A stretch of 30,486 bases of DNA from a virus (lineage: Duplodnaviria; Caudoviricetes), in IMG/VR virus record IMGVR_UViG_3300010362_000073, positions 1 through 30,486 of that record; one strand, given 5' to 3'. Position numbers and translations under genes: made by a program. Shown here piece by piece: positions 42 through 25,418 of this stretch (its first letter is position 1; every line of letters starts with the position of its first letter). The notes below the pieces were generated by a model. The model saw only the letters and a program-made list of their open reading frames with translations, was not told where the DNA came from and made no database searches.

Positions 42-524
42 ATGGGCAATTGGAATTCGGGACGACGACCGGCACCCACGGCGATGAAGGTTTTGCGCGG
101 CAAGATGAAGCCCGGAGCTCGACCTAACGAGCCGCAGCCCTCGCCAGCAGATGCGAGCTTCGATGAACCGCCTGCGGAGCTCGTCGACGATGCGACGGCA
201 GCGGCCGAGTGGCGACGTGTGGCACCCACGCTGCGCCTCTGCGGTCTCGTCTCTGAGGCCGACCGAGCGGCCCTCGTGGCGTGTTGTCAGATGTGGTCGC
301 AATACCTCGATGCCCAACGACAAGTACGGAAGCTCGGCATGATCGTGAAGCGACCGGACGGCGTGCCGGTGACGAACCCATACCTTTACGTGGCCGATAG
401 AGCCCTGAAAGCGTGCCATCGGCTATGGTCCGATCTCGGGCTCACACCGGGAGGCCGTTCGAGAATTTCATCGTTGCCGATGGCCGAGCCGAGGAAGGCC
501 TCGAAGTGGGAGGGCTTGTTGTGA
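42..524 (+). CDS. terS: Terminase small subunit, P27 family
   Basis: GRRPAPTAMKVLRG N-terminus, 'EWRRVAPTL', 'NPYL', 'LGLTPGGRSRI' are typical P27-family motifs. ATG at 42 is preferred over GTG at 6. Confidence 0.92.
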   Translation: MGNWNSGRRPAPTAMKVLRGKMKPGARPNEPQPSPADASFDEPPAELVDDATAAAEWRRVAPTLRLCGLVSEADRAALVACCQMWSQYLDAQRQVRKLGMIVKRPDGVPVTNPYLYVADRALKACHRLWSDLGLTPGGRSRISSLPMAEPRKASKWEGLL

Positions 525-742
525 AGAAGTTCATCGTCACTGTGCGGCAAACGACCACCGCGACTCGTGAGTATCAAGTGCTCGTCGATGCTGACCGGGC
601 CGAGTCGGCCGGGCGTGCCGTCGTGGCCGACTTCGACGCCGTGGGCTTCGATCATCACGACGTGCCGAAAGTGATCTCGGAGGGTGCCAGCGTGCCCGAA
701 GTCGTGGACATTCGGGAACGGCCTCGCATGGTGAAGCCATGA
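521..742 (+). CDS. Small hypothetical protein (VKKFIVTVRQ...)
   Basis: GTG start overlaps the terS stop (GTGA); its stop overlaps the next ATG (ATGA), suggesting translational coupling. Confidence 0.7.
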   Translation: MKKFIVTVRQTTTATREYQVLVDADRAESAGRAVVADFDAVGFDHHDVPKVISEGASVPEVVDIRERPRMVKP

Positions 743-1473
743 TCTGCGAACCCGAGCTCGTGCCGCTCGTCGAATTGAAGCCGCACCCGAGGAACTACCG
801 CACGCACACCGACGATCAACTCGTGCACTTGTGCGCGAGCATTCGAGAGCACGGCCTGTATCGCAACATCGTCACGGCACGTGACCTGACGATCCTCGCG
901 GGTCACGGCGTCGTGTTGGCCTGCCAACGACTCGATCTTGAGACGGTGCCGGTGGTCCGCATGGACATCGACGCCGAAGACCCTCGGGCGTTGAAGCTCC
1001 TGATCGGTGACAACCAGATCGCGCATCTCGCCTCGATTGATGATCGAGAGCTCACGGAGATGTTGAAGTCGATTCACGATTCGGAGTTTGCCGAGCTCGT
1101 CGGCACCGGTTTCGATGCCGAACAACTCGCGGCCCTCGTGATGGTCACGAGACCGGCCTCGGAGATTCGCGATCACAACGCCGCGGCCGAGTGGGTCGGG
1201 ATGCCGGAGTACGAGCAGGCCGAGAAGCCGCTCACCGTCGTCGTGCACTGCGCGAACGAGAACGACCGTGATGCGTTCCTCGCGTTTGTCGGAGCCGGGC
1301 CGAAAAATATCACCGGGAGCGTACGCACAACCTGCTCGATGTGGTGGCCGCTGCGCGTGCGTCGGCCGTCGGAAGTCTTCGAAGAGGAAGCCGATGATTC
1401 TGCCGAAGTATCCGATCTTCATTCCGTCGAAGGGCCGGACGACAAGCCAAACGGCGCGATATCTGGATCGTGA
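739..1473 (+). CDS. ParB/Srx-like N-terminal domain protein
   Basis: 'LKPHPRNYRTH...SIREHG...ILAGHGVVLA...DNQ' ParB-N motifs (canonical GHxR Arg not seen); acidic C-terminal extension. Confidence 0.85.
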   Translation: MICEPELVPLVELKPHPRNYRTHTDDQLVHLCASIREHGLYRNIVTARDLTILAGHGVVLACQRLDLETVPVVRMDIDAEDPRALKLLIGDNQIAHLASIDDRELTEMLKSIHDSEFAELVGTGFDAEQLAALVMVTRPASEIRDHNAAAEWVGMPEYEQAEKPLTVVVHCANENDRDAFLAFVGAGPKNITGSVRTTCSMWWPLRVRRPSEVFEEEADDSAEVSDLHSVEGPDDKPNGAISGS

Positions 1474-2236
1474 GGGCACGCCGTTTCGTCTCGTAGTGGA
1501 GCCCGGCGAGGCCGAGGCCTATCGTGCCGTGTTCGGAGCCGAGCGCGTGCTCGTGCTCCCGTTCTCGAATCAAGGTCTGCACGTCACGCGGAACTGGATC
1601 AAGGCTCGCAGCATTGATGAGGGCCACGTGCGACACTGGCAACTCGATGACAACCTCCAACGAGCGCAGCGGGTGTATCGAGGCCGTCGAACCACGTGCC
1701 GCATGGGGCTTGCCCTCGCGGTCTGCGAAGACTTCACCGACCGATACGAGAACATTGCGATCTCGGGGCTCAATTACGAAATGTTCGTGATTCCCACCGA
1801 GTGCCCGCCGCCGTACTTCCTCAACGCGCACGTCTACAGTTGCACGCTCGTGCTGAACGCGGCCCCGTTCTCGTGGCGGCACCGCTACAACGACGACACC
1901 GACCTATGCCTGCAGGCCCTCGCGGCCGGATGGTGCACCGTGCTCCTGAATGCCTTCTGCGTAAAAAAGCTGCAGACGATGAAGTTGAAGGGCGGCAACA
2001 CGCCGATCTATCAACGAGACGGACGCCTCGAAATGGCGCGGAGCCTTGAACGTCGATGGCCCGGCGTCGTCTCGGTGTCGCGCCGATTCGAGCGGCCACA
2101 ACACGTCGTGCGCGACAGTTGGCGCAAGTTCGACACGCCCCTGAAACGGAGGGCCGATATCGATTGGAACAACCTGCAGCCGAACGAGTACGGCATGGTG
2201 TTACGCTCCGCCCCAAGAAAGGAAACCCTCACATGA
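1394..2236 (+). CDS. GREB1-like / TET-associated (TAGT) GT-A glycosyltransferase
   Basis: 'YPIFIPSKGR', 'RNWI', 'HWQLDDN', 'RYNDDTDLCLQAL', 'MKLKGGNT' match this family as I recall it. ATG at 1394 overlaps the ParB ORF by 80 nt. Confidence 0.8.
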   Translation: MILPKYPIFIPSKGRTTSQTARYLDREGTPFRLVVEPGEAEAYRAVFGAERVLVLPFSNQGLHVTRNWIKARSIDEGHVRHWQLDDNLQRAQRVYRGRRTTCRMGLALAVCEDFTDRYENIAISGLNYEMFVIPTECPPPYFLNAHVYSCTLVLNAAPFSWRHRYNDDTDLCLQALAAGWCTVLLNAFCVKKLQTMKLKGGNTPIYQRDGRLEMARSLERRWPGVVSVSRRFERPQHVVRDSWRKFDTPLKRRADIDWNNLQPNEYGMVLRSAPRKETLT

Positions 2237-2925
2237 CACCGCGAGACTTTCCGTTGCGTCCCGAGCTCGGCACGTTGCCGATGCGCCTGCGCGGCCTGCC
2301 GATTGATCGTCGTGGATTCCCTGTGCCGTGGTTCGTTCAGTGGATCGATGGCGAGCCCGAATTCCGGGCGATGGACCCGCAGAAATTCGCCATCGCCCAC
2401 CGGCAAAAAAAGTGCTGGGTGTGCGGTGACGGCCTCGGTGCGTATCTCGCCTTCGTGATCGGGCCGATGTGTGCCGTGAACGGCACGAGTGCTGAACCAC
2501 CGTGCCACTACGAATGCGCGGAATGGTCGGCCCGCCATTGTCCGTTCCTCTCGCGGCCGAAGATGGTGCGCCGGGAGAACGACTTGCCCGACGAGATCGA
2601 AGTCGGTGAAGGAGCCCTGCTCCGGAATCCCGGCTGCGCGGGCGTGTGGGTCACCAAGTGCGGATATGAGCTCGTGACGGCTCCGGGGCAGTCGGCCACC
2701 GGGTATGTGCTTCGCATGGGTCCGCCGCTTCGCATCGAGTGGTATGCCGAAGGTCGACCGGCCACACGTGCCGAGGTCGAGGCCTCGATTAACTCCGGGA
2801 TGCCGTTCCTGTTCGATGCGTGCGAGAAGGAGCGGACGCCGCTGGATCGTCGTGACGCGAAGAGGGCTCTTATGGATGCCCGGAAGGCCGTCGAGCAGTG
2901 GTTGCCAGTGGCGGTGCAACCGTGA
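2233..2925 (+). CDS. Cys/His-rich conserved hypothetical protein (probable metal binding)
   Basis: ATGA-coupled to the GT. Motifs PVPWF, CWVCG, GPMC, EPPCHYECAEWSARHCPFL. Confidence 0.75.
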   Translation: MTPRDFPLRPELGTLPMRLRGLPIDRRGFPVPWFVQWIDGEPEFRAMDPQKFAIAHRQKKCWVCGDGLGAYLAFVIGPMCAVNGTSAEPPCHYECAEWSARHCPFLSRPKMVRRENDLPDEIEVGEGALLRNPGCAGVWVTKCGYELVTAPGQSATGYVLRMGPPLRIEWYAEGRPATRAEVEASINSGMPFLFDACEKERTPLDRRDAKRALMDARKAVEQWLPVAVQP

Positions 2926-3239
2926 AGCCCGAGCTCGGGTACGACAAGTGGACGCGAAAGCGGCGCAAGGACGCACTGGCGCGTGGATGGTGGAAAGCGG
3001 TGCGTGCCATCGACCGGCACCGGGCCACGTTGCGGCGGCTCTCGCGCATGGAGAACCCGCCCGAGCACTACGAGCTCGACACACCCGGAAGTTCGAGCTC
3101 GTTGCGCGGGGCCGCGCCACCGTGGATGTGGTGTTGGACGGATCGACCGTTCGCGCCCTCCGAGCTCGAAGCCGATGACTTCGTGACGCCGCGTAACTGT
3201 TTTCTCGAAGAAGGCCAGTCGGTCGGCTCGGTGCCCTGA
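2922..3239 (+). CDS. Hypothetical protein
   Basis: GTG start overlaps the upstream stop (GTGA). Confidence 0.55.
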   Translation: MKPELGYDKWTRKRRKDALARGWWKAVRAIDRHRATLRRLSRMENPPEHYELDTPGSSSSLRGAAPPWMWCWTDRPFAPSELEADDFVTPRNCFLEEGQSVGSVP

Positions 3240-3359: not shown

Positions 3360-4913
3360 TTGCCACGTACCGTCTCGCAGGCCTCGCAAAAAGTTTCGAT
3401 CATCAATCGGCTGACGCACACGAAGGGCGTCTTCGCCGGGCAGTCGTTCGAGCTCCGACCGTGGCAGGAAAAGCAGATCATCCGCCCGCTCTTCAAGACC
3501 GACCGGCGCGGCCGTCGCGTGTACCGGACGTGCCTGTTGATGATGCCGCGCAAGAATGGGAAGACCGAGCTTGCGGCGGCACTGGCCATCGATGGCCTGC
3601 TCTTCGATGCCGAGCAGGGCGCGGAAGTCTACAGCGCAGCCGCCGACAAGGACCAAGCGGCGCTCGTCTTCAACGTTGCGGCGCAGATGATCCGCAACGA
3701 CGCCGAGCTTTACGCCCAATGCGAGATCCTCGATTCTCAAAAACGGATCGTGCACCGCAAGTCGGGCTCGTTCTATCGGGCCATCTCGGCCGAGGCCTAC
3801 TCGAAGCACGGCTTCAACGCCTCGCGGGTGATTTACGACGAGCTCCACGCCGCACCCTCGCGGGAACTGTTCGACGTGCTCTCGTCGTCGCAGGGCGCAC
3901 GCGATCAGCCGTTGCTGATTGCCATCTCGACGGCCGGATACGACCGGCATTCGATCTTGTGGGAGCTCTATCAGCACGCGAAGAAGGTCGCAGAAAATCC
4001 GTCGCTCGATCCGTCGTTCCTGCCGATTCTGTTCGAGGCTCCCATCGATGCCGATTGGACCGACGAGCGCGTGTGGCAAAAGGCGAACCCGGCCCTCGGA
4101 GATTTTCGTTCACTCGAAGAGATGCGGGTCGCCTGTGCACGCGCGAAGGAAATCCCGGCGCAGGAGAACACGTTTCGACGGTTGTATCTGAACCAGTGGA
4201 CCGAGCAGGCCTCGCGCTGGATCGCGCTCGATGCGTGGGACGCCTGCCGCGACGAAACGATCTCGTTGTCGACGTTGAAGGGTCGGCCGTGTTACGTCGG
4301 TATGGACCTGAGCTCGACGCACGATCTCACGAGCCTCTGCGCCGTGTTTCCGAACGGCCCGGACTTCGATGTGCTGTGGGCGAATTTCATACCGGCCGAG
4401 AACATCCGACAGCGCGTGCACCGCGATCACGTGCCATACGACCAGTGGCAACGAGACGGCCACATCATCGCCACGCCGGGCAACGTCGTCGATTACGAGG
4501 CCGTGCGCAAGACGTTGCACGAGTGGTCGGAGCTCTTCGATCTGAAAGAGATTGCCTTCGATCCGTGGAACGCCGTGGACCTGACGACACGCCTACAGGA
4601 GCAGGACGGCTTCACGTGCGTGGCCGTGCGGCAAGGGTTCGCGTCGTTGTCGGCTCCCACGAAGGCGCTGGAAAAAGCGATCCTGTCGAAGACGCTGCAA
4701 CACGACGGCAATCCGGTCGCGCGGTGGGCCGTGAGCAACGTCTCGGTTGAACATGACCCGGCAGGCAACATCAAGATTTCGAAGAAGGTCTCGACGGAGC
4801 GGATCGATCCAGTGGCCGCGCTCGTGATGGCCGTAGATCGCATGACGCGCAATCAGGGCACGACGCCGCCGAAGTATCAGATATTCGTGTTCGGAGGCCG
4901 CACGCATGTGTGA
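3360..4913 (+). CDS. terL: Terminase large subunit (Terminase_1 type)
   Basis: Walker A PRKNGKT, Walker B IYDELH, nuclease motifs GMDLSSTHDLT and IDPVAA. GGAGA RBS before TTG. Confidence 0.97.
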   Translation: MPRTVSQASQKVSIINRLTHTKGVFAGQSFELRPWQEKQIIRPLFKTDRRGRRVYRTCLLMMPRKNGKTELAAALAIDGLLFDAEQGAEVYSAAADKDQAALVFNVAAQMIRNDAELYAQCEILDSQKRIVHRKSGSFYRAISAEAYSKHGFNASRVIYDELHAAPSRELFDVLSSSQGARDQPLLIAISTAGYDRHSILWELYQHAKKVAENPSLDPSFLPILFEAPIDADWTDERVWQKANPALGDFRSLEEMRVACARAKEIPAQENTFRRLYLNQWTEQASRWIALDAWDACRDETISLSTLKGRPCYVGMDLSSTHDLTSLCAVFPNGPDFDVLWANFIPAENIRQRVHRDHVPYDQWQRDGHIIATPGNVVDYEAVRKTLHEWSELFDLKEIAFDPWNAVDLTTRLQEQDGFTCVAVRQGFASLSAPTKALEKAILSKTLQHDGNPVARWAVSNVSVEHDPAGNIKISKKVSTERIDPVAALVMAVDRMTRNQGTTPPKYQIFVFGGRTHV

Positions 4914-5121: not shown

Positions 5122-6996
5122 GTGCAACTCGAACGGGCGTACACACTGCTCCACGTGAAGGCCCTCGATGCACCGAGCCGGAAGTTCAGCGGGATTGCCT
5201 CCACGCCCGAACTGGATCGGCAAGGCCACGTGATCGACATGGCCGGGGCACGGTTCTCGAATCCGTTGCCGTTGCTGCTCTTTCACGATCAGGCCTCGCC
5301 CATCGGGACCGTGCGATTGAAGCGCGGCCCGGACGGCATCGAATTCGAGGCCACGCTTCCGAACATCGACACGCCGGGCCGCGTGAAGGACCGGATCGAC
5401 GAGGCGTGGGATTCGATCACGGCCGGTCTCATTACCGGCGTGTCGATTGGGTTCCGAGCCGTGGGCGATGCCGTCGAAGTCGTGAAGGGCGGGCTCAAAT
5501 TTCTGAAGACCGAAATTTTGGAGCTTTCGCTCGTGACGATTCCGGCGAATGCCTCGGCCTCGATTCTCACCGTGAAGTCATTGGCCGCGTCCGGCCCTTA
5601 CTTGCCCTGCGTTGCGGGCTCTGCTCCGAGAACTGTCATGAAGCAGACCACCGCAGAACACATTGCGAGCCTCCGGGCCACGCACCACACGAAAACGGGC
5701 CGGATGGCCGAACTACTCGACAAGGCCTCGGAAGATGGCACCACGCTCGACGATGTCGCCGCGAAGGAATACGACGGGCTCGCCCTCGATGTGAAGAGCC
5801 TCGAATCTGACATCGAGCGGCTGCGGACGTTGCAGGCCGCGCAGGCGGCTGCCGCTGCGCCCATCGTCCTGCACGGTGGCGCACCGGCAACGGTGCCGCT
5901 CGTGCAAGTCGTGAAGAAGGAGCTCCCGAAGGGCACCGCGTTTATTCGTGGCGTGATGGCCATTGCGGCCTCGAAGGGCAACAAGCTACAGGCCGTCGAG
6001 ATCGCCAAGCAGTGGAAGGACACGCCCGAGGTCGAACTGTGGATGAAAGCGGCCGTTGCGCCGGGCACAACCACCGACCCGCAGTGGGCCGGTGCGCTCG
6101 TGCAGATCCAGAACCTGACGAACGAATTCATCGAACTGCTGCGACCCGCCACGATCCTCGGGAAGATTCCCGGCTTTCGTCGCGTCCCGTTCAACGTCCA
6201 AGTCCCGATCCAGACGGCAGGCGGCACGTACGGGTGGGTCGGGCAGGGCGCACCGAAGCCGGTGACGAAACTCACCTTCGGCACCGATCAACTGCTCGTC
6301 GCCAAAGCGGCCGGGATCATCGTGCTCACGCAGGAGCTCGTGCGCTTGTCCGATCCGAGCGCCGAGGCCATCGTGCGGGCCGACATGGTTGCCGGAATCG
6401 CGCAGTTCCTCGATCAGCAGTTCATTGACCCGGCTGTCGTGGCAACGGCCGTGAATCCGGCCAGCGTGACCAACGGCACCGTGGCAATTCCCACGACCAA
6501 CGATCCATTGAAGGACATTCACGCCCTGATGTCGTGGTTCGCAGCCGCGAACATTCCGCTAACCGGCGTGACGTTGATCATGTCGGAAACGAATGCGTTC
6601 ACGCTCGGTATGCAGCGTGACCCACTCGGCAACCGTCGATTCCCGAACATGGGCGTCAACGGTGGATCGGTCGACGGGATCACGATCATCACGAGCAACA
6701 CGGCAGGCACGAACGTGATCGCGATGGTGCCCTCGTTCATCCTTTACGCGGACGACGGCGGCGTGACCATCGACGTGTCGACCGAGGCCTCGGTGCAGAT
6801 GGACAGTGCCCCGATGAACCCGGCCGACGCGACCACCGTGTATCGGTCGTTCTGGCAAGACAATCTCGTGGGCCTGCGAGCCGAGCGGTACATCAACTGG
6901 AAGCGCGTGAAGCTCGAAGCCGTGAAGTACGTCAGCGGTGCGACGTACGTGCCCACGGTCAGTGGCGTCACTCCGGCCGAACAACCTGCCGCATAG
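5122..6996 (+). CDS. Prohead protease (HK97/U35) - major capsid protein fusion
   Basis: Protease motifs PLLLFHD, GVSIGF, ELSLVTIPAN; then a coiled-coil delta-like region and HK97-type capsid (WVGQGAPKP, FWQDNLVGLRAERYINW). Confidence 0.93.
   Translation: MQLERAYTLLHVKALDAPSRKFSGIASTPELDRQGHVIDMAGARFSNPLPLLLFHDQASPIGTVRLKRGPDGIEFEATLPNIDTPGRVKDRIDEAWDSITAGLITGVSIGFRAVGDAVEVVKGGLKFLKTEILELSLVTIPANASASILTVKSLAASGPYLPCVAGSAPRTVMKQTTAEHIASLRATHHTKTGRMAELLDKASEDGTTLDDVAAKEYDGLALDVKSLESDIERLRTLQAAQAAAAAPIVLHGGAPATVPLVQVVKKELPKGTAFIRGVMAIAASKGNKLQAVEIAKQWKDTPEVELWMKAAVAPGTTTDPQWAGALVQIQNLTNEFIELLRPATILGKIPGFRRVPFNVQVPIQTAGGTYGWVGQGAPKPVTKLTFGTDQLLVAKAAGIIVLTQELVRLSDPSAEAIVRADMVAGIAQFLDQQFIDPAVVATAVNPASVTNGTVAIPTTNDPLKDIHALMSWFAAANIPLTGVTLIMSETNAFTLGMQRDPLGNRRFPNMGVNGGSVDGITIITSNTAGTNVIAMVPSFILYADDGGVTIDVSTEASVQMDSAPMNPADATTVYRSFWQDNLVGLRAERYINWKRVKLEAVKYVSGATYVPTVSGVTPAEQPAA
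5602..5619 (+). promoter_or_regulatory. 18-bp motif, copy 2, in the protease-capsid linker
   Basis: Identical to 3323-3340; ends 18 nt before an in-frame ATG at 5638. Confidence 0.6.
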
Positions 6997-7004
6997 GTTC
7001 CTCG

Positions 7005-8384
7005 ATGGACCTGTTCGGCCTGACCATCACACGACGAACGAAAGCAGCGGGAGCCTCGCCACGTGCGGGGCTCTCGCCTGTTACGGCCAGTCGTGGATCG
7101 GGCGGGTGGTATCCCGTCGTGCGAGAGCCCTACCTCGGAGCATGGCAGCGCAACGAGGAAGTGCGCCCGGCCTCGGTCCTGTCGTACGGGCCGGTGTGGG
7201 CCTGCGCGTCTCTCATCTCGCAGGACATTGGGAAGATGCGGCTCCGGCTCGTCGCGCAGGACGACGACGGCATATGGACTGAGACCACGAGCGCCGCCTT
7301 CTCACCGGTCCTGCGAAAGCCGAACCGGTATCAGAACATCATCAAATTTCTTGAACAGTGGATTCTCTCGAAGCTCCTGCACGGCAATGCGTACGCCCTA
7401 AAGCAACGCGATGACCGCAACGTCGTCGTGGCGCTCTACCTGCTCGACCCGACGCGCGTGTGGCCGCTCGTCGCGCCGGATGGCTCTGTCTATTACCAGT
7501 TGTACCAGTCGGATCTCGCGCAGGTTGAACCGGCCGAACGTGTGGCCGTCCCGGCTTCCGAGATCATCCACGACCTGATGATCGCGCCGTGGCACCCGCT
7601 CTGCGGCGTGTCACCGATCTACGCCTGCGGCCTCGCGGCCCTGCAGGGCCTGAAAATTCAGAACAACTCGACGGCCTTCTTCGCCAACGGCTCGGCACCG
7701 GGCGGGATCATCTCCGTGCCCGGAGCCATCGACGACGACACCGCGAAGCGCATCCACGACGAGTGGAACGCGAACTATACCGGCGAGAACGTCGGCAAGG
7801 TCGGCGTGCTCGGCGACGGCATGAAGTACGAGCCGGTCACGATCACCGCCGTTGATTCCCAACTCGTCGAGCAGTTGCGATGGACCGCCGAGACGGTGTG
7901 CTCGTGCTTCCACGTGCCGCCGATCCTGATCGGTGTTGGCCCGTATCCGCCGTGGGGCTCGTTGGAGCCACTGCTTCAGCAGTACTACGCGCAGTGTCTC
8001 CAATCGCTCGTGGTGTCGCTCGAAAAGTGTCTCGACGAAGGCCTCGAACTACCGACGCCGTTTGGCACCGAGCTCGACATCGACGATCTGATTTGGATGG
8101 ACACGCCGACGCGCACGAAAGCGGCCAGTGATGCCATCGGCTCGGGCGGGATGTCGCCCGACGAGGCCCGTAAGAAATATTTCGGGCTCGGCCCCGTCGA
8201 AGGCGGCAACACGCCGTACATGCAACAGCAGAACTATTCGCTCCGGGCGCTGGCCGAACGAGACGCGCCCTCATCCACGCCACCGCAGCAGAACACGCCG
8301 CCACCGGACGACACCGATCCTGAGCTCGACGACGCACAGATCGAGGCGTGGGTCGGTGCACTCATGCGGAGTGCAACGCCATGA
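7005..8384 (+). CDS. Portal protein, HK97 family
   Basis: VWACASLISQDIGK, KPNRYQ, LLHGNAY, GVSPI, FFANGSAPGGII, FHVPP motifs. Confidence 0.96.
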   Translation: MDLFGLTITRRTKAAGASPRAGLSPVTASRGSGGWYPVVREPYLGAWQRNEEVRPASVLSYGPVWACASLISQDIGKMRLRLVAQDDDGIWTETTSAAFSPVLRKPNRYQNIIKFLEQWILSKLLHGNAYALKQRDDRNVVVALYLLDPTRVWPLVAPDGSVYYQLYQSDLAQVEPAERVAVPASEIIHDLMIAPWHPLCGVSPIYACGLAALQGLKIQNNSTAFFANGSAPGGIISVPGAIDDDTAKRIHDEWNANYTGENVGKVGVLGDGMKYEPVTITAVDSQLVEQLRWTAETVCSCFHVPPILIGVGPYPPWGSLEPLLQQYYAQCLQSLVVSLEKCLDEGLELPTPFGTELDIDDLIWMDTPTRTKAASDAIGSGGMSPDEARKKYFGLGPVEGGNTPYMQQQNYSLRALAERDAPSSTPPQQNTPPPDDTDPELDDAQIEAWVGALMRSATP

Positions 8385-8887
8385 CAGAAACCGAAGTCGC
8401 GGCCGTGGTTCGAGGGCTCGCGCCCGTCGTGCGCGAGATGGTCACGAAAGCCACCGAGTCACACGCCACGGCCCTGCACGACCGATTGATCACGCTCGAA
8501 CGGAAGGCCGTCGACGACACGATCACGACGCGGCTCGCAGCCCTCGAAGCCCGAGCGCCGATACCGGGGCCACCGGGCGCAGCCGGGGCCAACGGCAAGG
8601 ACGGCAGCGACGGCCTCGGATTCGATGAATTGCAAGTCGTGCAGACCGACGAGCGCACATTCGAAGTGATTGCCCGCCGAGGTGACATCACGAAAAGCAT
8701 CGGCGTCGTTCACGTGCCCGTCGATCTCTATTGCGGGGTTTACGTCGATGGCAAGCAGTACGCCCGAGGCGACAACGTGACGTATCAGGGCTCGGTGTGG
8801 CACTGCAACGAAGAGACACGCGAACGGCCGAACGGTGGCAAGGCGTGGACGTTGAAGGTCAAGCGCGGAAGGGATGGCAAGCAGTAA
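8381..8887 (+). CDS. Head-associated protein with short collagen-like repeat and CBM-like C-terminus
   Basis: GPPGAAGANGKDGSDG; 'YARGDNVTYQGSVWHC', 'WTLKVKRGRDG'. ATGA-coupled to portal. Confidence 0.7.
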   Translation: MTETEVAAVVRGLAPVVREMVTKATESHATALHDRLITLERKAVDDTITTRLAALEARAPIPGPPGAAGANGKDGSDGLGFDELQVVQTDERTFEVIARRGDITKSIGVVHVPVDLYCGVYVDGKQYARGDNVTYQGSVWHCNEETRERPNGGKAWTLKVKRGRDGKQ

Positions 8888-14828: not shown

Positions 14829-14963
14829 ATGATCACGGTCCTTACACTGCTGATGCTGATTGCGCTCGGGCTCGTCGTGGGCTCGATCTACGGACGGGTT
14901 CCACTGTGGTCCGCCGTCTTCGTCGTCGTCGTGGCCAACCTGCTTTTCTTGTGGGGCAGGTAA
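14829..14963 (+). CDS. 44-aa two-TM membrane protein (holin-like); not in ORF track
   Basis: CAGGAGG RBS; MITVLTLLMLIALGLVVGSIYGRVPLWSAVFVVVVANLLFLWGR. Confidence 0.7.
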   Translation: MITVLTLLMLIALGLVVGSIYGRVPLWSAVFVVVVANLLFLWGR

Positions 14964-14970
14964 CCGCGTG

Positions 14971-15074
14971 CGGGTGAATGACCGCAGAGCCGCCTGTTCC
15001 TCGTGGAACGTGGCGGGGTTCGGCAGGGCCTGCACTGCCCGGACGACCGAGAAAACGTCACTGCGGCCATCCTG
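14971..15074 (+). ncRNA. Candidate structured RNA (four-way junction)
   Basis: Closing stem ATGACCGCAG/CTGCGGCCAT encloses three hairpins; folded by eye. Confidence 0.4.
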
Positions 15075-15081
15075 ACAAGCC

Positions 15082-17373
15082 ATGACCGGCAATCCGCTCA
15101 GTACGGCGGCTGCACTCGAAGTCGCCATCGTGCGGCCGAGCTTCAAACTTGAGGCGGGCCTCGGTGGCAGCTTCCGCAACAACCTCATCAACGAGTCGTA
15201 CAACGTGGCGACGTGGCCATCGGCTGACTTCACGGCCTTTGGCGGCGTGCCCATGCGGGACATCAGCGGGAACGGGTTCCACGGCACGTGGAACGGCTCC
15301 GGCGTGACACCCGGCGTGCCGTTCGATGTGCCCGAGGGCCTGCTCGGCGGCAACTTCACCGGCTTCGGGTATGGGCAAGTGCCGACCGAGGCGTCACCCG
15401 ATCCGCATTTCAATTTGTCGTTGGCCGGTGGCGACGTGGACATCGCCTGCATTGTGAAAGACGTGCAGAGCACGCCGACCGAGATGTGCATCGTGGCCAA
15501 GCAGCAAGGCAACTCGGTGAGTACCGGCTATCACGTGGCGGTCCAAAACGGGCACGTGAAATTTTTCGTCTCCGTCGCGAACATTCAGCAGGTCAACTTC
15601 GAGTCGCCCGGCTCGATTGCCGACGGCCATCAGCACATCATCACGTGCCACTACCTGATCGGCCCGAAGATCGCCTACATCTTCATCGACGGCGTGCAGG
15701 TCGCCTCGCAGGCGCACACCGGCTTAGAGCTCGGGCTCACAACCGGCCCGCTGCGCGTCGGCCTCTTCTCTGCCGATGCCGTGGGCGACAACTCGGGATT
15801 TAAGGGCACGCTCGGGTATGTGTCGATTGGTCGCGAAGGCGACATCACACTCAATGCGCGACTCATGGCCACGCTCGTGTGGTCGGACCTGACCGACGAC
15901 GTACGCATCGGGCCGAACCCGATGCAATCGCGGATCGGGATCTCCGGCACCGGGCCAAACGATCACGTGGCCACGAGCGGGACGTTCAATTTCACACTCG
16001 ACAACTCGGCGCGGAAGCACGTGAACGGGTTTTACACGCCCGGTCACGCAGGCGTGCGGACTGGGTGGGAGCTCGGCGTTCCGATCCGGTGGACGACGAC
16101 GTTTGCGGGCACGAGCTACCACCAATTCCGAGGACGGCTCGCAACGGTGACGCCGTTGCCCGGCATTCGAGCGGGCAAGTACGTCGACTGCCAAGCAACC
16201 GATTGGCTCGATGTGGCGGCGGGCTCCCCACTCTCGGCCATGCCGCCGCAGGTCAACCAACGGAGCGACAAGGTTCTCCTTGCGGCGATTGCGATGTCGC
16301 AGGGTCGCACGCCCATCGATGCCCTCTCGATTCATGAAGGGCAGGGCGTGTTCTCGTTCGCGGCTGATGTGGCCGATGGCGAGGGCGACACGATCCTCAC
16401 CGAGATCGGCCGGGTGACGACGAGTGAAGACGGCTTCACGTACATCCGCAGTGACGGCACGCTCGTGTTCGAGTCGCACGGTGAACGACCGACCCGCGCG
16501 ATCTCGGCCTCGTTCAACGAGAATATGTCGGGCCTCGAAATCACGTTTAGCCTGCAGCAGTTTTACAACGTCGTTCGTGTGTTCTACACGCCGCGTGCCC
16601 TCGGTGTCTCGGGCATCCTCTACACGCTCGACATTTCGCAGCAGCCGCAACAGATACTTGCGGGAGAGACGCGCATTATCGAGGGCGGGTACGTGGACCC
16701 GAACAACAAGGCCGAGCGCGTCGGCGGGGCCAACATTGCCCCGTTCACACCGAACACCGATTACAAGTTCACGCAGAACAGTGACGGAAGCGGATCGGAT
16801 CTCACGTTGAACCTTGATGTTCAGGCCGATCTCGGGGGCAACTCGTTTCGACTGACGTTGACAAATCCGAGCTCGGTTGATGGGTTTCTTCATCTCACGT
16901 CCACAGTGGGCCTGCAGATTCGAGGCACGCCGATCCTGTTCTACTCGCAGGCCCTCGAAGAGCGGCGCAACTCGCAGAGTGTGCGCGAGCGCGGGCCGCG
17001 CACCCTCTCGATCACGTTGCCGTACGAATCGAGGCCGAGCCGTGTTGCCCAGATCGCGGACGACTATGCGGCCCTGTACGGTCGCGAGGCTCCGAGGCCA
17101 ACGTCGATGACCGTGCACGGCAACCGCAACGCCACGATGCTGACGCAGGTGTTGAAGCTGCAGCCGGGCGACAAGATTACCGTTGCCGAGACGATGACCG
17201 GCGTGACCACGCTCGACGGCTTCATCATTCACGAGAAGTCCCTCACGTATCAGGGCGGGCACATCGTGTCGGGCACGTTCAGTTTGGCCCCGGCCTCGGC
17301 CGGGCAAAATCTGTTGAAGGCGCGGCTCAACGTGATGCGCCTCGGGATCTCGCGCCTGAACTACGTCGGGTAA
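15082..17373 (+). CDS. Tail tip / baseplate protein with N-terminal LamG (ConA-like) domain
   Basis: 'DISGNGFHGT', 'IADGHQHII', 'IFIDGVQVA' LamG motifs; 'FTLDNS', 'YIRSDGTLVF' tail-hub-like motifs. Confidence 0.75.
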   Translation: MTGNPLSTAAALEVAIVRPSFKLEAGLGGSFRNNLINESYNVATWPSADFTAFGGVPMRDISGNGFHGTWNGSGVTPGVPFDVPEGLLGGNFTGFGYGQVPTEASPDPHFNLSLAGGDVDIACIVKDVQSTPTEMCIVAKQQGNSVSTGYHVAVQNGHVKFFVSVANIQQVNFESPGSIADGHQHIITCHYLIGPKIAYIFIDGVQVASQAHTGLELGLTTGPLRVGLFSADAVGDNSGFKGTLGYVSIGREGDITLNARLMATLVWSDLTDDVRIGPNPMQSRIGISGTGPNDHVATSGTFNFTLDNSARKHVNGFYTPGHAGVRTGWELGVPIRWTTTFAGTSYHQFRGRLATVTPLPGIRAGKYVDCQATDWLDVAAGSPLSAMPPQVNQRSDKVLLAAIAMSQGRTPIDALSIHEGQGVFSFAADVADGEGDTILTEIGRVTTSEDGFTYIRSDGTLVFESHGERPTRAISASFNENMSGLEITFSLQQFYNVVRVFYTPRALGVSGILYTLDISQQPQQILAGETRIIEGGYVDPNNKAERVGGANIAPFTPNTDYKFTQNSDGSGSDLTLNLDVQADLGGNSFRLTLTNPSSVDGFLHLTSTVGLQIRGTPILFYSQALEERRNSQSVRERGPRTLSITLPYESRPSRVAQIADDYAALYGREAPRPTSMTVHGNRNATMLTQVLKLQPGDKITVAETMTGVTTLDGFIIHEKSLTYQGGHIVSGTFSLAPASAGQNLLKARLNVMRLGISRLNYVG

Positions 17374-17385
17374 GGAGCTTCTGCG

Positions 17386-18915
17386 ATGCCACTAAATCGC
17401 ACATGGTCGAACGGCCTCGTTGACGACGACGGCAGCGGCACCCTCGGCACGATCTGGAACAAGTCGCAGATCAACCAGTTCGAGGACGTGATCGATGCGG
17501 CCCTTGCCCCGCTCGAATCACCGACGCGGCCGGTGCCGGTCCATCACGCCACGCATCTGCAGGGCGGCTCCGATCCGATCTCGAATGTGTCGTCCACGAC
17601 GAACGGTCTTGCACCGCAGGGCTCGGGCGACCTGAATGCATTTCTCCGTGCCGATGGCCAATGGGCCTACCTGTCGGCCACGGCCGTCGCCCCGCACGCA
17701 TCGAGACACTACAGCGCAGGCGTTGACCCGCTCGATGTGAAGTTGTTGGCCGGGTTCCCCGGAGGCACGGCCACGTTCCTGCGCTCCGATGGTTCGTTTG
17801 CCGTCCCGCCCGGTGGCGGCGGTGGCGGTGGAAATGTCACCGGCCCCGGTTCGGCCGTTGACAACGCCGTGACGCGATTCGACGGGGCCTCGGGCACGTT
17901 GATCCAATCCTCGAACGTGACTATCGACGACGCGGGCATCCTCGTCGCGGCCGGTCTCGGCGGCACGCCGCTGAACGCCTCTCAACTCACATCGGGCTCG
18001 ATGCCCGATGCACGGCTCTCCGCCAACGTGCTGAAAGTGACGGGCGGATATCCCGGAGGTACGACGGCCTTCCTGCGGGCCGATGGCACGTTCGCGGTGC
18101 CTGCCGGTGGCGGCGGCGGAGCTCCGGCCGCACATGCGACGACGCATCAGGTCGGCGGCTCCGATGTGGTGAGCGTGTTGTTACTCGGTGGCTTCAATGG
18201 TCTGAGCCGGATGTTCCTGCGCGGCGACGGCGTGTGGTCCGACACGTTGACGGCCAACGCCGCGATTCAGGGCGACCTGTACCTCGGGGGCTCGGCTGCG
18301 AACATCTTCTTCAACGCGAACGCCGTCATTCAACGAAGCACGGCAGACGGGGCCGATAACGGGTTCGTTCACATCACAGGGGGCGGCGGGTTCGGCCCAT
18401 CACGCGGGGCCGGGTTCACGATGTGGGGTAACGAGAGCTCGTTGCCGGGCGTGCTGCAGGTCTTCGCCGGGGCCGTGTCGGCCTCGCGGATCGACTTCGT
18501 AAAAAACGACGGCTCAACCGTCATGCTCACACTCGGTGGCGATGGCGTGATCAAAAGCACGGCACTCTATGCCGACACGACAACATCGGCGGCAAACGTC
18601 TTTGTGCAGAGCGACGGACGGCTGCAGCGGTCCACATCGTCACTGCGCTATAAAACGAACGTGGCCCCGCTCGACGCGGACGACTGGCGGTGGCTCTTCT
18701 CGGCCCGGCCGATCAAGTTCAACGAGAAGAAAGACCCGCAGGGCCGTCCACATGCCGGGCTCGCGGCCGAGCACGTGGCCGCAGCGGCTCCAATGTTCGT
18801 CGTGTTGAACGCCGAGGGCCTACCGGATGAAGTCGCATACGGCCATCTCACGGCCCCGATCATCTCGGCCCTGCAGTCACTCGACGCGCGAATTAGATCG
18901 TTGGAGGCTCGATGA
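17386..18915 (+). CDS. Tail fibre with C-terminal intramolecular chaperone (peptidase S74)
   Basis: 'SSLRYKTNV', 'GLAAEHV', 'VAYGHL' and terminal coiled coil; internal HxxxH and FLRxDG repeats; AAGGAG RBS. Confidence 0.88.
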   Translation: MPLNRTWSNGLVDDDGSGTLGTIWNKSQINQFEDVIDAALAPLESPTRPVPVHHATHLQGGSDPISNVSSTTNGLAPQGSGDLNAFLRADGQWAYLSATAVAPHASRHYSAGVDPLDVKLLAGFPGGTATFLRSDGSFAVPPGGGGGGGNVTGPGSAVDNAVTRFDGASGTLIQSSNVTIDDAGILVAAGLGGTPLNASQLTSGSMPDARLSANVLKVTGGYPGGTTAFLRADGTFAVPAGGGGGAPAAHATTHQVGGSDVVSVLLLGGFNGLSRMFLRGDGVWSDTLTANAAIQGDLYLGGSAANIFFNANAVIQRSTADGADNGFVHITGGGGFGPSRGAGFTMWGNESSLPGVLQVFAGAVSASRIDFVKNDGSTVMLTLGGDGVIKSTALYADTTTSAANVFVQSDGRLQRSTSSLRYKTNVAPLDADDWRWLFSARPIKFNEKKDPQGRPHAGLAAEHVAAAAPMFVVLNAEGLPDEVAYGHLTAPIISALQSLDARIRSLEAR

Positions 18916-19316
18916 TCGAGACCACGCTCGGGGCCTGCATCGACGCGGAGCCGTGCTTGTCACGGTTGGCCGCGCAGGCATGGCCGGTGAAGACGGCCTA
19001 CCATCTCGCAAAGCTGACGCGACTCGTGCGGGTCGAGGTTGCCGCCTTCGAGGAACAACGATCCGTGCTCGTGCAAAAGTTCGGCGCGGCCCGGCCACCG
19101 ACCGAGGCCGAACGTGCACGCGGGGCCGCTGATGAAGTCTTCGAGGTTGGCGCGGACAACCTCACGGCCTACCTGCAGCAGTTTCGAGAGCTCCGCTCGG
19201 CCTCGGCCACGATTGCGTGGCAGCCGCTGACGTTGACCGAGCTCGACGACGCAGGCGTCAGCGTGATGGGCACCGACCTGATCGGCCTCGGCCCGTTCCT
19301 CGATGGCGAGGGCTAG
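18912..19316 (+). CDS. Fibre-associated hypothetical protein (DUF1617-like)
   Basis: ATGA coupling; 'PVKTAYHLAKL...LVQKFG'. Confidence 0.65.
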   Translation: MIETTLGACIDAEPCLSRLAAQAWPVKTAYHLAKLTRLVRVEVAAFEEQRSVLVQKFGAARPPTEAERARGAADEVFEVGADNLTAYLQQFRELRSASATIAWQPLTLTELDDAGVSVMGTDLIGLGPFLDGEG

Positions 19317-19323
19317 AGCTTCG

Positions 19324-19354
19324 AGCCGGGGCTCGGTGGCGTGGTGCCCCGGCT
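19324..19354. terminator. GC-rich hairpin at the end of the late operon
   Basis: AGCCGGGGC-N13-GCCCCGGCT; no U-tract. Confidence 0.4.
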
Positions 19355-19415
19355 GGGGACGGCAAGGCGCGGGCAGGGCTTCCGTGAGGGTTGGCCGCTG
19401 CCCGCGCGGCGTCGT

Positions 19416-19838
19416 TTACTGCACGTCGTCAGTTGTTTCGCTGGCGCGGCGGTGTGATTCCTTATGTTCTGGATCGTCCTGTTGGCTGTCGTGCTCGTCG
19501 TGATCGCGTTGCTGCACGTGATCGCCCACTGGCCGAGTGACGATTAACTTCCGATACGCCTCGTCGCAGGCGTTGCACATCACGTCTATTGCGGCCTGAT
19601 GCAGCGCGGCAAGCCGCGCGTTCTCCTGCCCAAGCTCCGCAACCTTCGCCGCCAGCGTCGAACACTGAATGTGAAGCTCGTCGAAGTTTTCCTGCGTGAG
19701 ATGCATCGGTGGGCAGTGGCAGGCCTCGTGCTCGGCCGGGAACCGCTCTTGAAATTCGAGATCGATCAGGCGGCGCACGGATTCGAGCCGGTCGAGAACC
19801 TGCATGAAGGCTCTGGCGTCGGTCTCGGAGTCGTTCAT
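19416..19838 (-). CDS. Hypothetical coiled-coil protein
   Basis: ATG at 19838 overlaps the upstream stop (ATGA); true C-terminus uncertain. Confidence 0.6.
   Translation of the reverse strand: MNDSETDARAFMQVLDRLESVRRLIDLEFQERFPAEHEACHCPPMHLTQENFDELHIQCSTLAAKVAELGQENARLAALHQAAIDVMCNACDEAYRKLIVTRPVGDHVQQRDHDEHDSQQDDPEHKESHRRASETTDDVQ
19464..19547 (+). CDS. Possible 27-aa hydrophobic peptide
   Basis: MFWIVLLAVVLVVIALLHVIAHWPSDD; weak RBS; antisense to the 3' part of 19416-19838. Confidence 0.4.
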   Translation: MFWIVLLAVVLVVIALLHVIAHWPSDD

Positions 19839-19957
19839 GGCGGGTATCCCTTCTTCGTCAGCACGAGCAGGACGACGAACCCAACGGCCACGAGATACAG
19901 GCCCGCCAGCAACGACAGGACCATCGCGATCACGCAGGCCGCGCGAAAGACTTTCAT
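19835..19957 (-). CDS. 40-aa single-TM protein; not in ORF track
   Basis: MKVFRAACVIAMVLSLLAGLYLVAVGFVVLLVLTKKGYPP; stop overlaps the next ATG. Confidence 0.55.
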   Translation of the reverse strand: MKVFRAACVIAMVLSLLAGLYLVAVGFVVLLVLTKKGYPP

Positions 19958-19961
19958 CGGA

Positions 19962-19993
19962 GAAAAAAGGAAGCCCGTTGTCAGCGGGCTTCC
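19962..19993 (-). terminator. Rho-independent terminator
   Basis: Minus strand GGAAGCCCGCTGACAACGGGCTTCC followed by TTTTTT, just after the 20002 stop. Confidence 0.85.
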
Positions 19994-20001
19994 GACTTGC
20001 G

Positions 20002-20457
20002 TTACTCCTTTGGAGCCGGGTATGGTTTTGCCGTTCGAACGTACCCCTCGCCCTGCTTCCGTAGGTAACCGTGATTGATGAACGGCGTTGTTCTCGGTCC
20101 TTTCGAAGCTCGCGGCTCGTCGGCGTCGAACAGGGCAAGGAATTTCACGCCCTGTTCCTCTCTCTGCTGACGCTGTGATTTAGACCCACGCGAAGAGGCG
20201 GCAACCTTCTTCGCGTGGCCCTTTGTTTTCGGCTTCGGCCCCGGCTTGAGTCTCGGCCTCCCCGGTGGTCGGCCCTTCCGTCGAGCCGCGTCAAGTTGCA
20301 CGGCCTCGAACAACTGATCGTGCTGATCGCGTTTGCGCTCCGTGTCGTGCCCGTTCACGAGGTCGAGTGTTCGCTTAATCGCATCCGCGTTGGCTCGGTA
20401 TTCCCGTTCGAGCCTCCGGAGTTTTTCGGCCATGCCGCCGTGTGGGTGACTCGCCAT
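20002..20457 (-). CDS. Basic putative DNA-binding protein with AT-hook-like motifs
   Basis: GAGAGG RBS; N-terminal coiled coil; RRKGRPPGRPRLKPGPKPK. Confidence 0.7.
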   Translation of the reverse strand: MASHPHGGMAEKLRRLEREYRANADAIKRTLDLVNGHDTERKRDQHDQLFEAVQLDAARRKGRPPGRPRLKPGPKPKTKGHAKKVAASSRGSKSQRQQREEQGVKFLALFDADEPRASKGPRTTPFINHGYLRKQGEGYVRTAKPYPAPKE

Positions 20458-20483
20458 TTAACCTCTCAGGTGGTTGTCGGCTC

Positions 20484-20978
20484 TCAGTGCGCGTGCGCCG
20501 CAGCCGGGAGGGCCGACGATGGCCGTCTGCGGTAACGTCGTCGAATCGTGGGCCGAGACCGTGGCCGTTCGTCCTTCTCTTCATCGCGTCGTTGTTTTGA
20601 CTTCAGCGATCCGAACGTGGCCACGTGATCGCCCTGCTCGTCGGCAAGGTGGAATTTCATCCACGCTTCGAGGGGGGCCTCACCGCCGATGCCCTTGATC
20701 TCAAAGGCCGCGCCGAGCACGGCCAGCGATACCGCCCCGAGCTTCGGCAATAGAAGCTCGGTCGGTGGCAGTCGCTCGAACAGGTCGAGAAGATTTTTAA
20801 CGCGGAGGTTTTTAAGGATTCGATTCAGGTTGGCTGCGGCCGTGAAGTTGAAGCAGTCGATCTGCGAGAAGTCGTGTCGGTAAAACACATCGGAACCGAC
20901 CTGTAGCAACGGGGCCTTTGCCTTCCCGGCGATGGCCTCGACCACGTAGGCTCCGAGGACGCGGCGCGACAAGTTCAT
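20484..20978 (-). CDS. Hypothetical protein with RNAP alpha-CTD-like HhH region
   Basis: AGGAGA RBS; 'NRILKNLRVKNLLDLFERLPPTELLLPKLGAVSL'. Confidence 0.6.
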   Translation of the reverse strand: MNLSRRVLGAYVVEAIAGKAKAPLLQVGSDVFYRHDFSQIDCFNFTAAANLNRILKNLRVKNLLDLFERLPPTELLLPKLGAVSLAVLGAAFEIKGIGGEAPLEAWMKFHLADEQGDHVATFGSLKSKQRRDEEKDERPRSRPTIRRRYRRRPSSALPAAAHAH

Positions 20979-21021
20979 TGAACGATCTCCTTAATAGGGT
21001 TTACATCGGGAGCACGGCCGC

Positions 21022-21049
21022 ATCTTAAGCGTTGCGGATCTCCTGTCAA
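21022..21049 (-). promoter_or_regulatory. Sigma70-like promoter for the leftward accessory operon
   Basis: Minus strand TTGACA-N16-TAAGAT; CCGCA-N10-TGCGG inverted repeat spans the -10 box. Confidence 0.7.
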
Positions 21050-21153
21050 GCCGTGTAAGACTAAGCTCGACTTGCGGAGCCGCCCGGCCGATTAGACACC
21101 GATTGCCGATTGTTAAGAAGCGTCGGGGGCGGGTCGGGAAGGGCTCCCGGCTC

Positions 21154-21402
21154 GTGGGCTAGTGCGCGGGGCTAGTTTGATGAAAAACACCAATGAAGAC
21201 GGGCCGAAACGATGGGCAACTCCTACTCCCCAAGAAGGAATGGTGGAGTAGGGCCACCGCTCGATTCTCGGCGATTTCCTGAGCAAACTCGCAGATTATG
21301 CCGCGATGGCCCGGCGTCGCGCAATCGGCAACCGTCGGCAACCGTTTGCGAAATGCTTGGGAATATCCGCAACGGTTGGCCTCGGGGCTATGCGGTGGGC
21401 TA
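21154..21402. other. Putative attP
   Basis: Paired GGGCTA arm-like repeats at 21154-21174 and 21383-21402; central inverted repeat with 8-nt spacer at 21222-21252; lies downstream of the integrase. Confidence 0.55.
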
Positions 21403-21464
21403 ACGGGCTGATTTGACGGGGAGTGGTTGAGGAACGAGGTTCCCCAACCACTGACAGGCGAGTG

Positions 21465-21737
21465 CTACCGGGAGCCTTCCGGCTTCCGATACAGGATGCC
21501 GCCGAAGAGGCACGAGACGGCCACGAGCCCGGCGTTCAGCGTGATGGCCCCACTGAGCAACGGCCATCCGCCTGCGGCAACCACGGCCGACACTGAGAGG
21601 CCCACGAGAGGCACGAGCAACGTCAGGGCGAAATACACGCCCCGGTAAGCCTTCCCGCTCGTGGCCAGTGCAACGGGCACCGACAACGAGAGGAAGGCCG
21701 AGAGGAACACGAGGCCGACGCCGAGCTCGTGGCCCAT
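21465..21737 (-). CDS. 90-aa three-TM membrane protein
   Basis: GGAGG RBS; start overlaps the integrase stop (TAATG); three hydrophobic segments and a basic C-terminus. Confidence 0.7.
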   Translation of the reverse strand: MGHELGVGLVFLSAFLSLSVPVALATSGKAYRGVYFALTLLVPLVGLSVSAVVAAGGWPLLSGAITLNAGLVAVSCLFGGILYRKPEGSR

Positions 21738-23188: not shown

Positions 23189-23454
23189 CTCTCGTGCCTT
23201 TCCTGCTTGGCGTGTTTTTCTGCGAGCTCTTCCGAGAGCTTGTGAACGTAGGTCTTGATCAGCGTCTGGCGCGGAATGCCGATGTTCTCGGCCTCGCGGT
23301 CGAGAATCGCAACGGTCTTTGACGGAAGATCGATGTTCACTCGATGCACGCGCGTGCTCGTGGGGTCGGCCTTTCGTCGTGCGGGTTGGTCGGTCTTTGG
23401 TTTCATCGTTCGGGCCTTTCGTGTCTTGCGAGTCTTGCGGGGAGAGCTCGCCAT
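23185..23454 (-). CDS. RHH (CopG/BrnA-like) DNA-binding protein
   Basis: 'RVNIDLP...LDREAENIGIPRQTLIK'; AAGGAG RBS. Confidence 0.75.
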   Translation of the reverse strand: MASSPRKTRKTRKARTMKPKTDQPARRKADPTSTRVHRVNIDLPSKTVAILDREAENIGIPRQTLIKTYVHKLSEELAEKHAKQERHER

Positions 23455-23468
23455 CGGGTCGGACTCCT

Positions 23469-23768
23469 TCACGGTTTCATCGGGGGCACCACGCCCGCGA
23501 GTTTTCGAAGATGTTGCATCGCTTCCGGGTGACGGAATGGTTCGCCGCAGTTCCAATCTTTCGATTGGTAGTCATAAACGAGCATCACGCATTCACGTGT
23601 GAGCTCGAAGTCTTCGCCGAGCTTGTCGTGCGCGACGAAGCCCTCGATGCCTCGGTCGATATCGACGAAGAGCAGGCCACCGTTATCCGCAATGAGTGCC
23701 GCGATGCGCTGCCCTGCCGACGTATAGAGTCGGCCGGTGTTGAACGCTACGGTCTTTGGAGTGGTCAC
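23469..23768 (-). CDS. Hypothetical protein
   Basis: GTG start with AGGGAG RBS; first gene of the leftward int operon. Confidence 0.7.
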   Translation of the reverse strand: MTTPKTVAFNTGRLYTSAGQRIAALIADNGGLLFVDIDRGIEGFVAHDKLGEDFELTRECVMLVYDYQSKDWNCGEPFRHPEAMQHLRKLAGVVPPMKP

Positions 23769-23830
23769 GATTCAAAGCTCCCTAAAAAGTCGTTTGTTTG
23801 CCGCCGCCGAACGAACACAACCGGAGCAAA

Positions 23831-23838
23831 ATTATACC
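23831..23838 (-). promoter_or_regulatory. Perfect -10 box (GGTATAAT) for the int operon
   Basis: ATTATACC on the plus strand, about 60 nt upstream of 23768; -35 box is poor. Confidence 0.5.
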
Positions 23839-24015
23839 TTCTCGGTAAAGCCGCTTAGATTGCTAAGAGATCGCAGCGATACGGGTCGGGGCCGTAACCG
23901 CTTGGTTCGACGGCCGGATCGGTCGAATGAGATAGGTGTTAGGAAACTAGCACGTAGGAACCCTCGCGGCCGATTTCGATTGCGTTCCGATCCGTGGCGG
24001 TACAGGCCTCCCTTC

Positions 24016-25414: not shown

Positions 25415-25418
25415 CCCA

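Follow-up and report, generated by a model that had tools for sequence, protein, structure and literature searches.

Sugar addition to phage DNA, in the articles cited here, starts from a hydroxylated base (PMC8256090, PMC13216743). In the TAGT family of glycosyltransferases (GTs; PF20691), the characterised member from phages T2 and T6 acts on DNA (PMC13216743), with further family precedent in PMC13390438. In a second group of systems, a ParB-like partner activates phage T-dioxygenases on double-stranded DNA (PMC13229309), and the steering of DNA modifiers by ParB during packaging is a published hypothesis (PMC8256090). Here we describe a locus of the virus record IMGVR_UViG_3300010362_000073 in which a ParB-like protein and a TAGT GT are encoded side by side, between the genes for the small (terS) and large (terL) terminase subunits. 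The window, i.e., the whole stretch of DNA analysed, is the entire assembly of this record, a linear sequence of 30,486 bp. The two genes very probably encode the two halves of one GT, which may add sugar directly to phage DNA. The features that make up this module are:

739-1473, + strand: ParB-like protein of 244 aa, with a ParB N-terminal domain (PF02195, E = 5e-5; phrog_620, E = 5e-27) followed by the GTN domain
1147-1398, + strand: GTN domain, about residues 137-220 of the ParB-like protein, with conserved W, G, P, F and P
1394-2236, + strand: TAGT-family GT of GT-A fold, 280 aa (PF20691, E = 1.8e-39; phrog_842, E = 1e-35)

GTN is our working name for the domain of ~80 aa that ends the ParB-like protein and has no Pfam family. 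A profile built from that tail also finds small stand-alone genes upstream of GTs and the N-termini of longer GTs. From 2,709 homologues of the window GT we obtained 72 viral loci (near-identical contigs counted separately), in 67 of which GTN lay within two genes of the GT or was fused to it. It was fused to ParB in 48 loci, encoded by a gene of its own in 16, joined to the GT in two and part of another N-terminus in one; in the five loci where it was missing, the GT starts within 227 bases of the contig end. GTN was likewise present in 32 of 34 loci on prokaryote contigs, one exception being cut at the contig edge and the other having no GT gene call. Among cultured phages, 25 records matched the GT by tblastn at E 1e-5, and in the six examined closely (Aeh1, POP12, Kuja, which has two such proteins, PTm1, GD1 and Vibrio 1.124.O) GTN forms the N-terminus of all seven GT proteins (E from 2e-15 to 2e-6, nine sequences searched), making them one-piece GTN-TAGT enzymes. 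A search of 1.84 billion representatives returned 3,462 GTN proteins, in more than 3,000 clusters at 50% identity, and the best 150 of them include one ParB-GTN-TAGT triple fusion (P0393). A quick tree was built from 88 GT domains after removal of redundant loci. In it, the window GT fell in a group of 47 rows (SH-aLRT 100), of which 45 are ParB-type loci, one is the triple fusion and one is a stand-alone form. The closest relative (L001) has the order terS-ParB-GT-terL, with no inserted genes.

It is because GTN adjoins or lies within the GT in nearly all loci, is the N-terminus of one-piece enzymes and occurs in a triple fusion that we regard a split enzyme as very probable. GTN itself appears to be a previously unreported domain, and it connects the ParB gene with the enzyme. 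An earlier note on this DNA had rightly called a ParB-like gene next to the GT, but overlooked that its tail seems to be the missing N-terminal domain of the latter; one prediction from this is that the GT alone would look inactive. A weak structural lead in the same direction is an Atlas row aligning ParB residues 149-218 with a TAGT cluster of 399 aa (TM 0.49). GTN is absent from the two control loci that have a known handle-maker, namely the TET-linked one of P12024L and that of T6 ggt (gene 42), and T6 ggt matches the profile of the window's GT subfamily only at E 7e-6. We found no published description of a TET-free ParB-TAGT pair or of GTN, in a literature search that lacked most subscription papers; Iyer 2013 may already include TET-free neighbourhoods of ParB and GT.

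The GT belongs to TAGT by sequence and fold. Its score against PF20691 is 136.2 bits (curated cut-off, 27.5), with profile positions 1-205 of 205 covered, and its predicted model (predicted local distance difference test, pLDDT, 94.7) has a GT-A fold. VIA matched this model to GT-A enzymes at Z 13.8 (root-mean-square deviation 5.7, 212 aligned) and Z 13.5 (3.4, 186 aligned), the closer fold matches being viral TAGT models, whereas a sequence search of solved structures gave nothing below E 0.3. Across a 116-row alignment D85, D86, D168 and D170 are invariant and D167 is 98% conserved; since catalytic residues are thus invariant in more than 100 homologues, the GT is apparently no decaying relic. 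Yet it lacks the TET association of its family, and the record shows no genomic association of the TAGT gene with TET/JBP or a pyrimidine hydroxymethylase. The GT assignment made from the open reading frames (ORFs) alone therefore stood. A survey of neighbourhoods, proposed as a check, found no widely recurrent gene apart from the one that carries GTN and those for terminase or head proteins.

The ParB-like partner lacks several hallmarks of partition proteins. Its ParB N-terminal domain spans about residues 5-135, and the PF02195 match falls below Pfam's cut-off. The P-motif reads GHGV, and the Arg of GxxR occurs in none of 47 aligned rows, its position being taken by Val (38), Ile (5), Leu (2) or a gap (2), i.e., it is replaced in all 45 non-gapped rows. 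Pfam and NCBIfam scans gave no helix-turn-helix match in the protein and no ParA match among the window's genes, so that the GxxR Arg, the helix-turn-helix and the ParA partner of a canonical ParB CTPase are all missing. As this Arg is needed for NTP binding in ParB proteins (PMC12704722), a CTP-driven clamp seems unlikely and a scaffold role likelier, by analogy with the ParB-like activator of the T-dioxygenases (PMC13229309).

The orphan state of the GT, that is, the lack of enzymes that would make a hydroxymethyl handle, extends well beyond this record. The earlier note had seen no TET/JBP, C5-methylase or thymidylate-synthase-like gene, and profile searches of the record agree, with no match to PF12851 (TET/JBP), PF00303 (thymidylate synthase), PF00145 (C5 methylase) or the 2-oxoglutarate/iron (2OG-Fe) families PF13640 and PF13759. 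The genes of the T2/T6 second-sugar pathway (dCMP hydroxymethylase, alpha-glucosyltransferase) are absent from the genome as well. Whole records for 50 of the 72 loci, mostly longer ones, were searched for TET/JBP, and 49 of these plus the window with the other profiles. PF12851 matched one of 50 records (0/14 of those at least 90% complete), and this single match belongs to a separate thymine cluster; PF00303 matched two (0/15 near-complete) and PF13640 and PF13759 none of 50, while a C5 methylase occurred in six (3/15 near-complete). Aeh1 has one strong thymidylate synthase match, a weak second one lying antisense to gene 47, and neither Aeh1 nor phage 65 is among the gene 42 carriers in Table 4 of PMC2993671. 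Searches for ADDT and TET in five cultured phages carry little weight, having produced no match anywhere, controls included. The absence of TET/JBP and thymidylate-synthase-like genes is thus mostly the norm for this GT subfamily, which has thousands of members, mostly without a base-hydroxylating enzyme, and which would therefore need a different acceptor.

The genomic surroundings of the module point to packaging and replication. Of 48 ParB-type loci, counting the window, 38 have a TerL-like gene no more than 4 kb away, against 3 of 20 ParB-less loci; this count uses profiles from the same loci, with one cluster called TerL by inference and flanks that are sometimes short. The suggested link to packaging genes accordingly holds for the ParB-type loci. 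The terminases near the module are of several types, and therefore the module moves between phages. Wide recurrence with the GT is limited to the gene carrying GTN and to terminase or head genes. The neighbours of ParB-less forms include genes for helicase, polymerase, clamp, recombination functions and DNA methylase, and in two loci (L069:3912-7736 and L111:665-3463) GTN-TAGT forms a single protein with a DNA polymerase domain of family A (PolA). Neighbours or fusion partners include a sugar epimerase, a UDP-glucose dehydrogenase, a UDP-galactopyranose mutase, sulfotransferases, S-adenosylmethionine (SAM) methyltransferases and other GTs. In 11 loci (L034:4750-5577 and related), a gene for a class I SAM methyltransferase lies next to the GTN carrier and the GT or separates them, and this enzyme is fused to ParB-GTN in P0258; radical SAM/SPASM genes are also recurrent around GTN-GT. 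In P0385 and P0360, ParB-GTN is fused C-terminally to a sulfotransferase or another GT domain, and 48 of the best 150 GTN proteins contain two ParB-profile stretches. Phage Kuja (L076:3842-7269) carries two tandem GTN-TAGT genes directly after a DNA end protector gene.

We favour DNA as the acceptor because of the PolA fusions and the replication-gene contexts. Also counted for DNA are the T2/T6 family precedent (PMC13216743), the ParB-activated T-dioxygenases (PMC13229309) and the basic character of the GT. The reading that we prefer, to which we give a probability of roughly 0.45, is that the ParB-like and TAGT genes encode two GT halves that add sugar directly to phage DNA, at few sites and late, with no hydroxymethyl-base step. 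GTN would bind the GT and complete the enzyme, and the ParB domain, devoid of the NTP-binding Arg, would act as a dimerising or DNA-tethering scaffold rather than as a CTP switch. The sugar donor would be a host nucleotide-sugar and the acceptor an ordinary or host-methylated base in concatemer DNA, perhaps for partial defence evasion or as a packaging mark. More tentative still is the specific version in which a two-subunit phage GT puts sugar on an unmodified DNA base and is steered by a catalytically dead ParB to the DNA being packaged.

Several observations weigh against direct glycosylation of DNA. The DNA glycosyltransferases characterised in the cited articles transfer to hydroxyls, of 5-hydroxymethylcytosine or of a sugar (PMC8256090, PMC13216743), which argues against it because unmodified bases lack such hydroxyls. 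The DNA of phiJL001, which carries a T6-like GT and is not among our GT matches, is normally digestible (PMC4276943). In the window genome, 11 of 29 testable 6-bp palindromes are strongly avoided, as compared with 0 of 33 in the fully 5-methylcytosine-substituted Xp12 control (merged stretches of some relatives overlap in this comparison). This avoidance argues against blanket protection, but the argument is blunted because the T-hypermodified M6 control avoids 16 of 30 palindromes, as strongly as the window. The control TAGTs linked to DNA are not basic (isoelectric points 7.1 and 7.6), and the basicity of the GT may only reflect binding to the acidic GTN (isoelectric point 4.8). The triple fusion is a single predicted protein, and the contigs with the two PolA fusions are related, so that these fusions may trace back to a single event. 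The accessory neighbours resemble surface-glycan enzymes. Finally, potential handle-makers occur in some carriers: a thymidylate synthase lies two genes upstream of the GT in L050/L053, a hydroxymethylase-like gene about 29 kb away from it in PTm1, a weak 2OG-Fe match beside it in L108 and a TET cluster in the GTN-GT carrier L030. L050/L053, PTm1 and L108 are all ParB-less forms.

Three further observations concern the DNA and its possible modification. CGATCG occurs once in the window against 43 expected, and CTCGAG, GCCGGC, GCGCGC, CCCGGG and CCWGG are absent. In L030 (9330-14227), ParB-GTN and the GT directly precede a kinase-ParB-TET-ADDT thymine-modification cluster. The isoelectric point of the GT exceeds 9 in 89 of 116 homologues, with conserved C-terminal Arg/Lys, but as proof of DNA binding this is weakened by the non-basic control TAGTs. 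We ranked low the end-capping of terminase-cut DNA, because a temperate genome of cos type has to rejoin its ends; the cos type is inferred from the HNH-terS ends and the terminase family.

The strongest competitor to DNA glycosylation, although we think it less likely, is that the split enzyme glycosylates Ser/Thr hydroxyls of virion or packaging proteins late in infection, building a surface glycan. This would suit the hydroxyl chemistry, the position of the locus in a late operon beside head genes and the glycan-tailoring neighbours and fusions, and it would accommodate the strong restriction-site avoidance, blunted as that is by the M6 control. GREB1 O-GlcNAcylates a protein (PMC7968844), mycobacteriophage virion glycosylation is cited in PMC12582341, and the top Foldseek rows for the GT are protein O-glycosyltransferases, although only at TM 0.41-0.52, the generic GT-A level. 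However, the ParB and PolA fusions and the replication contexts of the forms without ParB point to DNA, the 25 tblastn matches include no actinophage record, and epimerases occur in DNA-hypermodification clusters too (Pyle et al., bioRxiv 10.1101/2023.12.21.572611).

It is less probable again that the GT is a conventional hydroxymethyl-pyrimidine or second-sugar enzyme whose acceptor comes in trans, from the host or a co-resident phage, from oxidative damage or through a gene outside the record. Family precedent (PMC8256090, PMC13216743) and the minority of carriers with thymidylate-synthase-like, TET or 2OG-Fe genes speak for it, as does a record estimated to be 91% complete (CheckV), whereas it fits poorly with the absence of TET, thymidylate synthase and the two other 2OG-Fe families from all 14-15 near-complete records and with the conserved catalytic residues, which are not those of a relic. 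Modification of a host molecule, such as an envelope receptor, a defence protein, RNA or a small metabolite, seems improbable: accessory sugar enzymes and a soluble GT-A fold would suit many acceptors, but the late-operon position suits assembly and not lysogenic conversion, and no membrane-protein partner recurs in the neighbourhoods. The least probable explanation, that a neighbouring or distant unannotated gene encodes a divergent oxidase or hydroxymethylase, draws on the many unannotated genes of the record and on loose first-look profile searches, which can miss divergent families, and is countered by the lack of any widely recurrent gene other than the GTN carrier, terminase and head genes, by ORF1 and ORF5 being shorter than the 164-position TET/JBP profile and by ORF4, which occurs apart from the GT and whose single invariant His is part of a Cys cluster.

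Three further ORFs share the interval with the module, and the terminase genes flank it:

42-524, + strand: terS, terminase small subunit, flanking gene (PF05119, E = 2.4e-22; phrog_83, E = 3e-31; alternative starts at 6 or 84)
521-742, + strand: ORF1, 73 aa, passenger, with no Pfam, PHROG or NCBIfam family
2233-2925, + strand: ORF4, 230 aa, passenger; its phage family is large and unnamed and has C61, C64, H92 and C95 invariant
2922-3239, + strand: ORF5, 105 aa, ORFan and passenger, with no family and only an identical sequence found
3360-4913, + strand: terL, terminase large subunit, flanking gene (PF20441, E = 1e-49; phrog_9, E = 2e-165; also PF03354)

Pfam and PHROG matches and the coordinates bear out the earlier reading of five coupled plus-strand ORFs, including the ParB-like and TAGT genes, between terS and terL. 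Start and stop codons overlap by 4 bases (GTGA/ATGA) at the terS-ORF1, ORF1-ParB, GT-ORF4 and ORF4-ORF5 junctions, and the GT gene, preceded by a ribosome-binding-like GAGGA site, overlaps the end of the ParB ORF by 80 bases. The five genes do not, however, form one cassette, as had been proposed, since the ParB-like gene and the GT are the only two that co-occur across loci. None of the 72 GT loci contains a homologue of ORF1 or ORF5. ORF4 has 4,900 homologues and gave 515 viral loci; it is present in one of the 72 GT loci, 4 kb away from the GT, and conversely the GT and GTN profiles matched none of 80 ORF4 loci. ORF1, ORF4 and ORF5 thus look like unrelated insertions or passengers, and the suggestion that a novel neighbour makes the acceptor is not supported. 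In a 120-row alignment C61, C64, H92 and C95 of ORF4 are invariant, H92 being its only conserved His, and this cluster is a probable metal site. Its predicted model is confident (pLDDT 93) and had no Foldseek match at E 0.001; its best VIA hit reached Z 6.0, the listed rows covering only C-terminal helices, and no named Atlas family was found. We also considered ORF4 as a hidden 2OG-Fe dioxygenase and see no sign of this: the 120 rows contain no conserved HxD/E...H iron triad, there is no fold match and the gene does not co-occur with the GT. A divergent dioxygenase beside the GT, a known system that the earlier note had kept in view, therefore finds no support.

Outside this interval, Pfam and PHROG recognise head, tail, integrase-like and HNH genes. 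The record ends with terS at one side and at the other with an HNH gene whose reading frame has no stop before the 3' end, so that the genome, taken before as apparently complete, is near-complete (91% by CheckV) rather than shown complete. In window positions 5122-8887, prohead protease and major capsid protein are fused in one ORF ahead of the portal gene, and the ORF that follows has portal C-terminal PHROG matches and a weak match to a CBM5/12 module. The integrase-like gene (21737-23188, minus strand) and a ribbon-helix-helix regulator (23185-23556, minus strand) are both divergent, and positions 14829-30486 contain no endolysin or holin recognisable by Pfam, PHROG or NCBIfam.

If correct, direct glycosylation would represent a one-step route of DNA hypermodification with a new base-sugar linkage. 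Either of the two leading answers, direct sugar on ordinary bases or protein glycosylation by a family of DNA GTs, would be new. Cultured phages such as Aeh1 are annotated as carriers of beta-glucosyl-HMC-alpha-glucosyltransferase despite having no gene 42.

Several known systems come close to this locus. Reportedly, Freeman et al. in 2023 described mycobacteriophage GTs that glycosylate virions. The window resembles those phages in having a GT without a base-hydroxymethylation pathway, but no actinophage record matched its GT at E 1e-5 by tblastn, and we know of no ParB partner for the mycobacteriophage enzymes. With the TAGT family as represented by the T2/T6 beta-glucosyl-HMC-alpha-glucosyltransferase and the P12024L GT, it shares the profile match, the GT-A fold and the DD motif; in contrast to T2/T6 and Nonlabens phage P12024L, it has no TET, dCMP hydroxymethylase or alpha-GT and possesses the extra GTN that is missing from the T6 and P12024L loci. 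As in the ParB-dependent T-dioxygenase pathways (5mYOX clade C1), a modifying enzyme has beside it a ParB-like partner that shows no obvious DNA-binding domain, and terminases are frequent neighbours (PMC13229309); in that clade the NTP-binding residues of the ParB-like activator are dispensable (PMC13229309). Unlike in clade C1, the partner is a GT and not a dioxygenase, and the record has no 5mYOX/TET gene. The P-loop kinase, amino acid:DNA transferase and amidotransferase that are a feature of clade C1 had no Pfam match among the window's genes. In addition, the tail of the window ParB appears to be a piece of the enzyme itself, whereas the TET-adjacent ParB in L030 has no GTN. Finally, the locus recalls the phage ParB-DNA methyltransferase fusions of phrog_498, the best PHROG match of its ParB region, in which a ParB N-terminal domain is likewise fused to part of a modifying enzyme (PMC12704722), but it differs from them in that its cargo would be a GT subunit and in the replacement of the GxxR Arg throughout the non-gapped rows (45/45).

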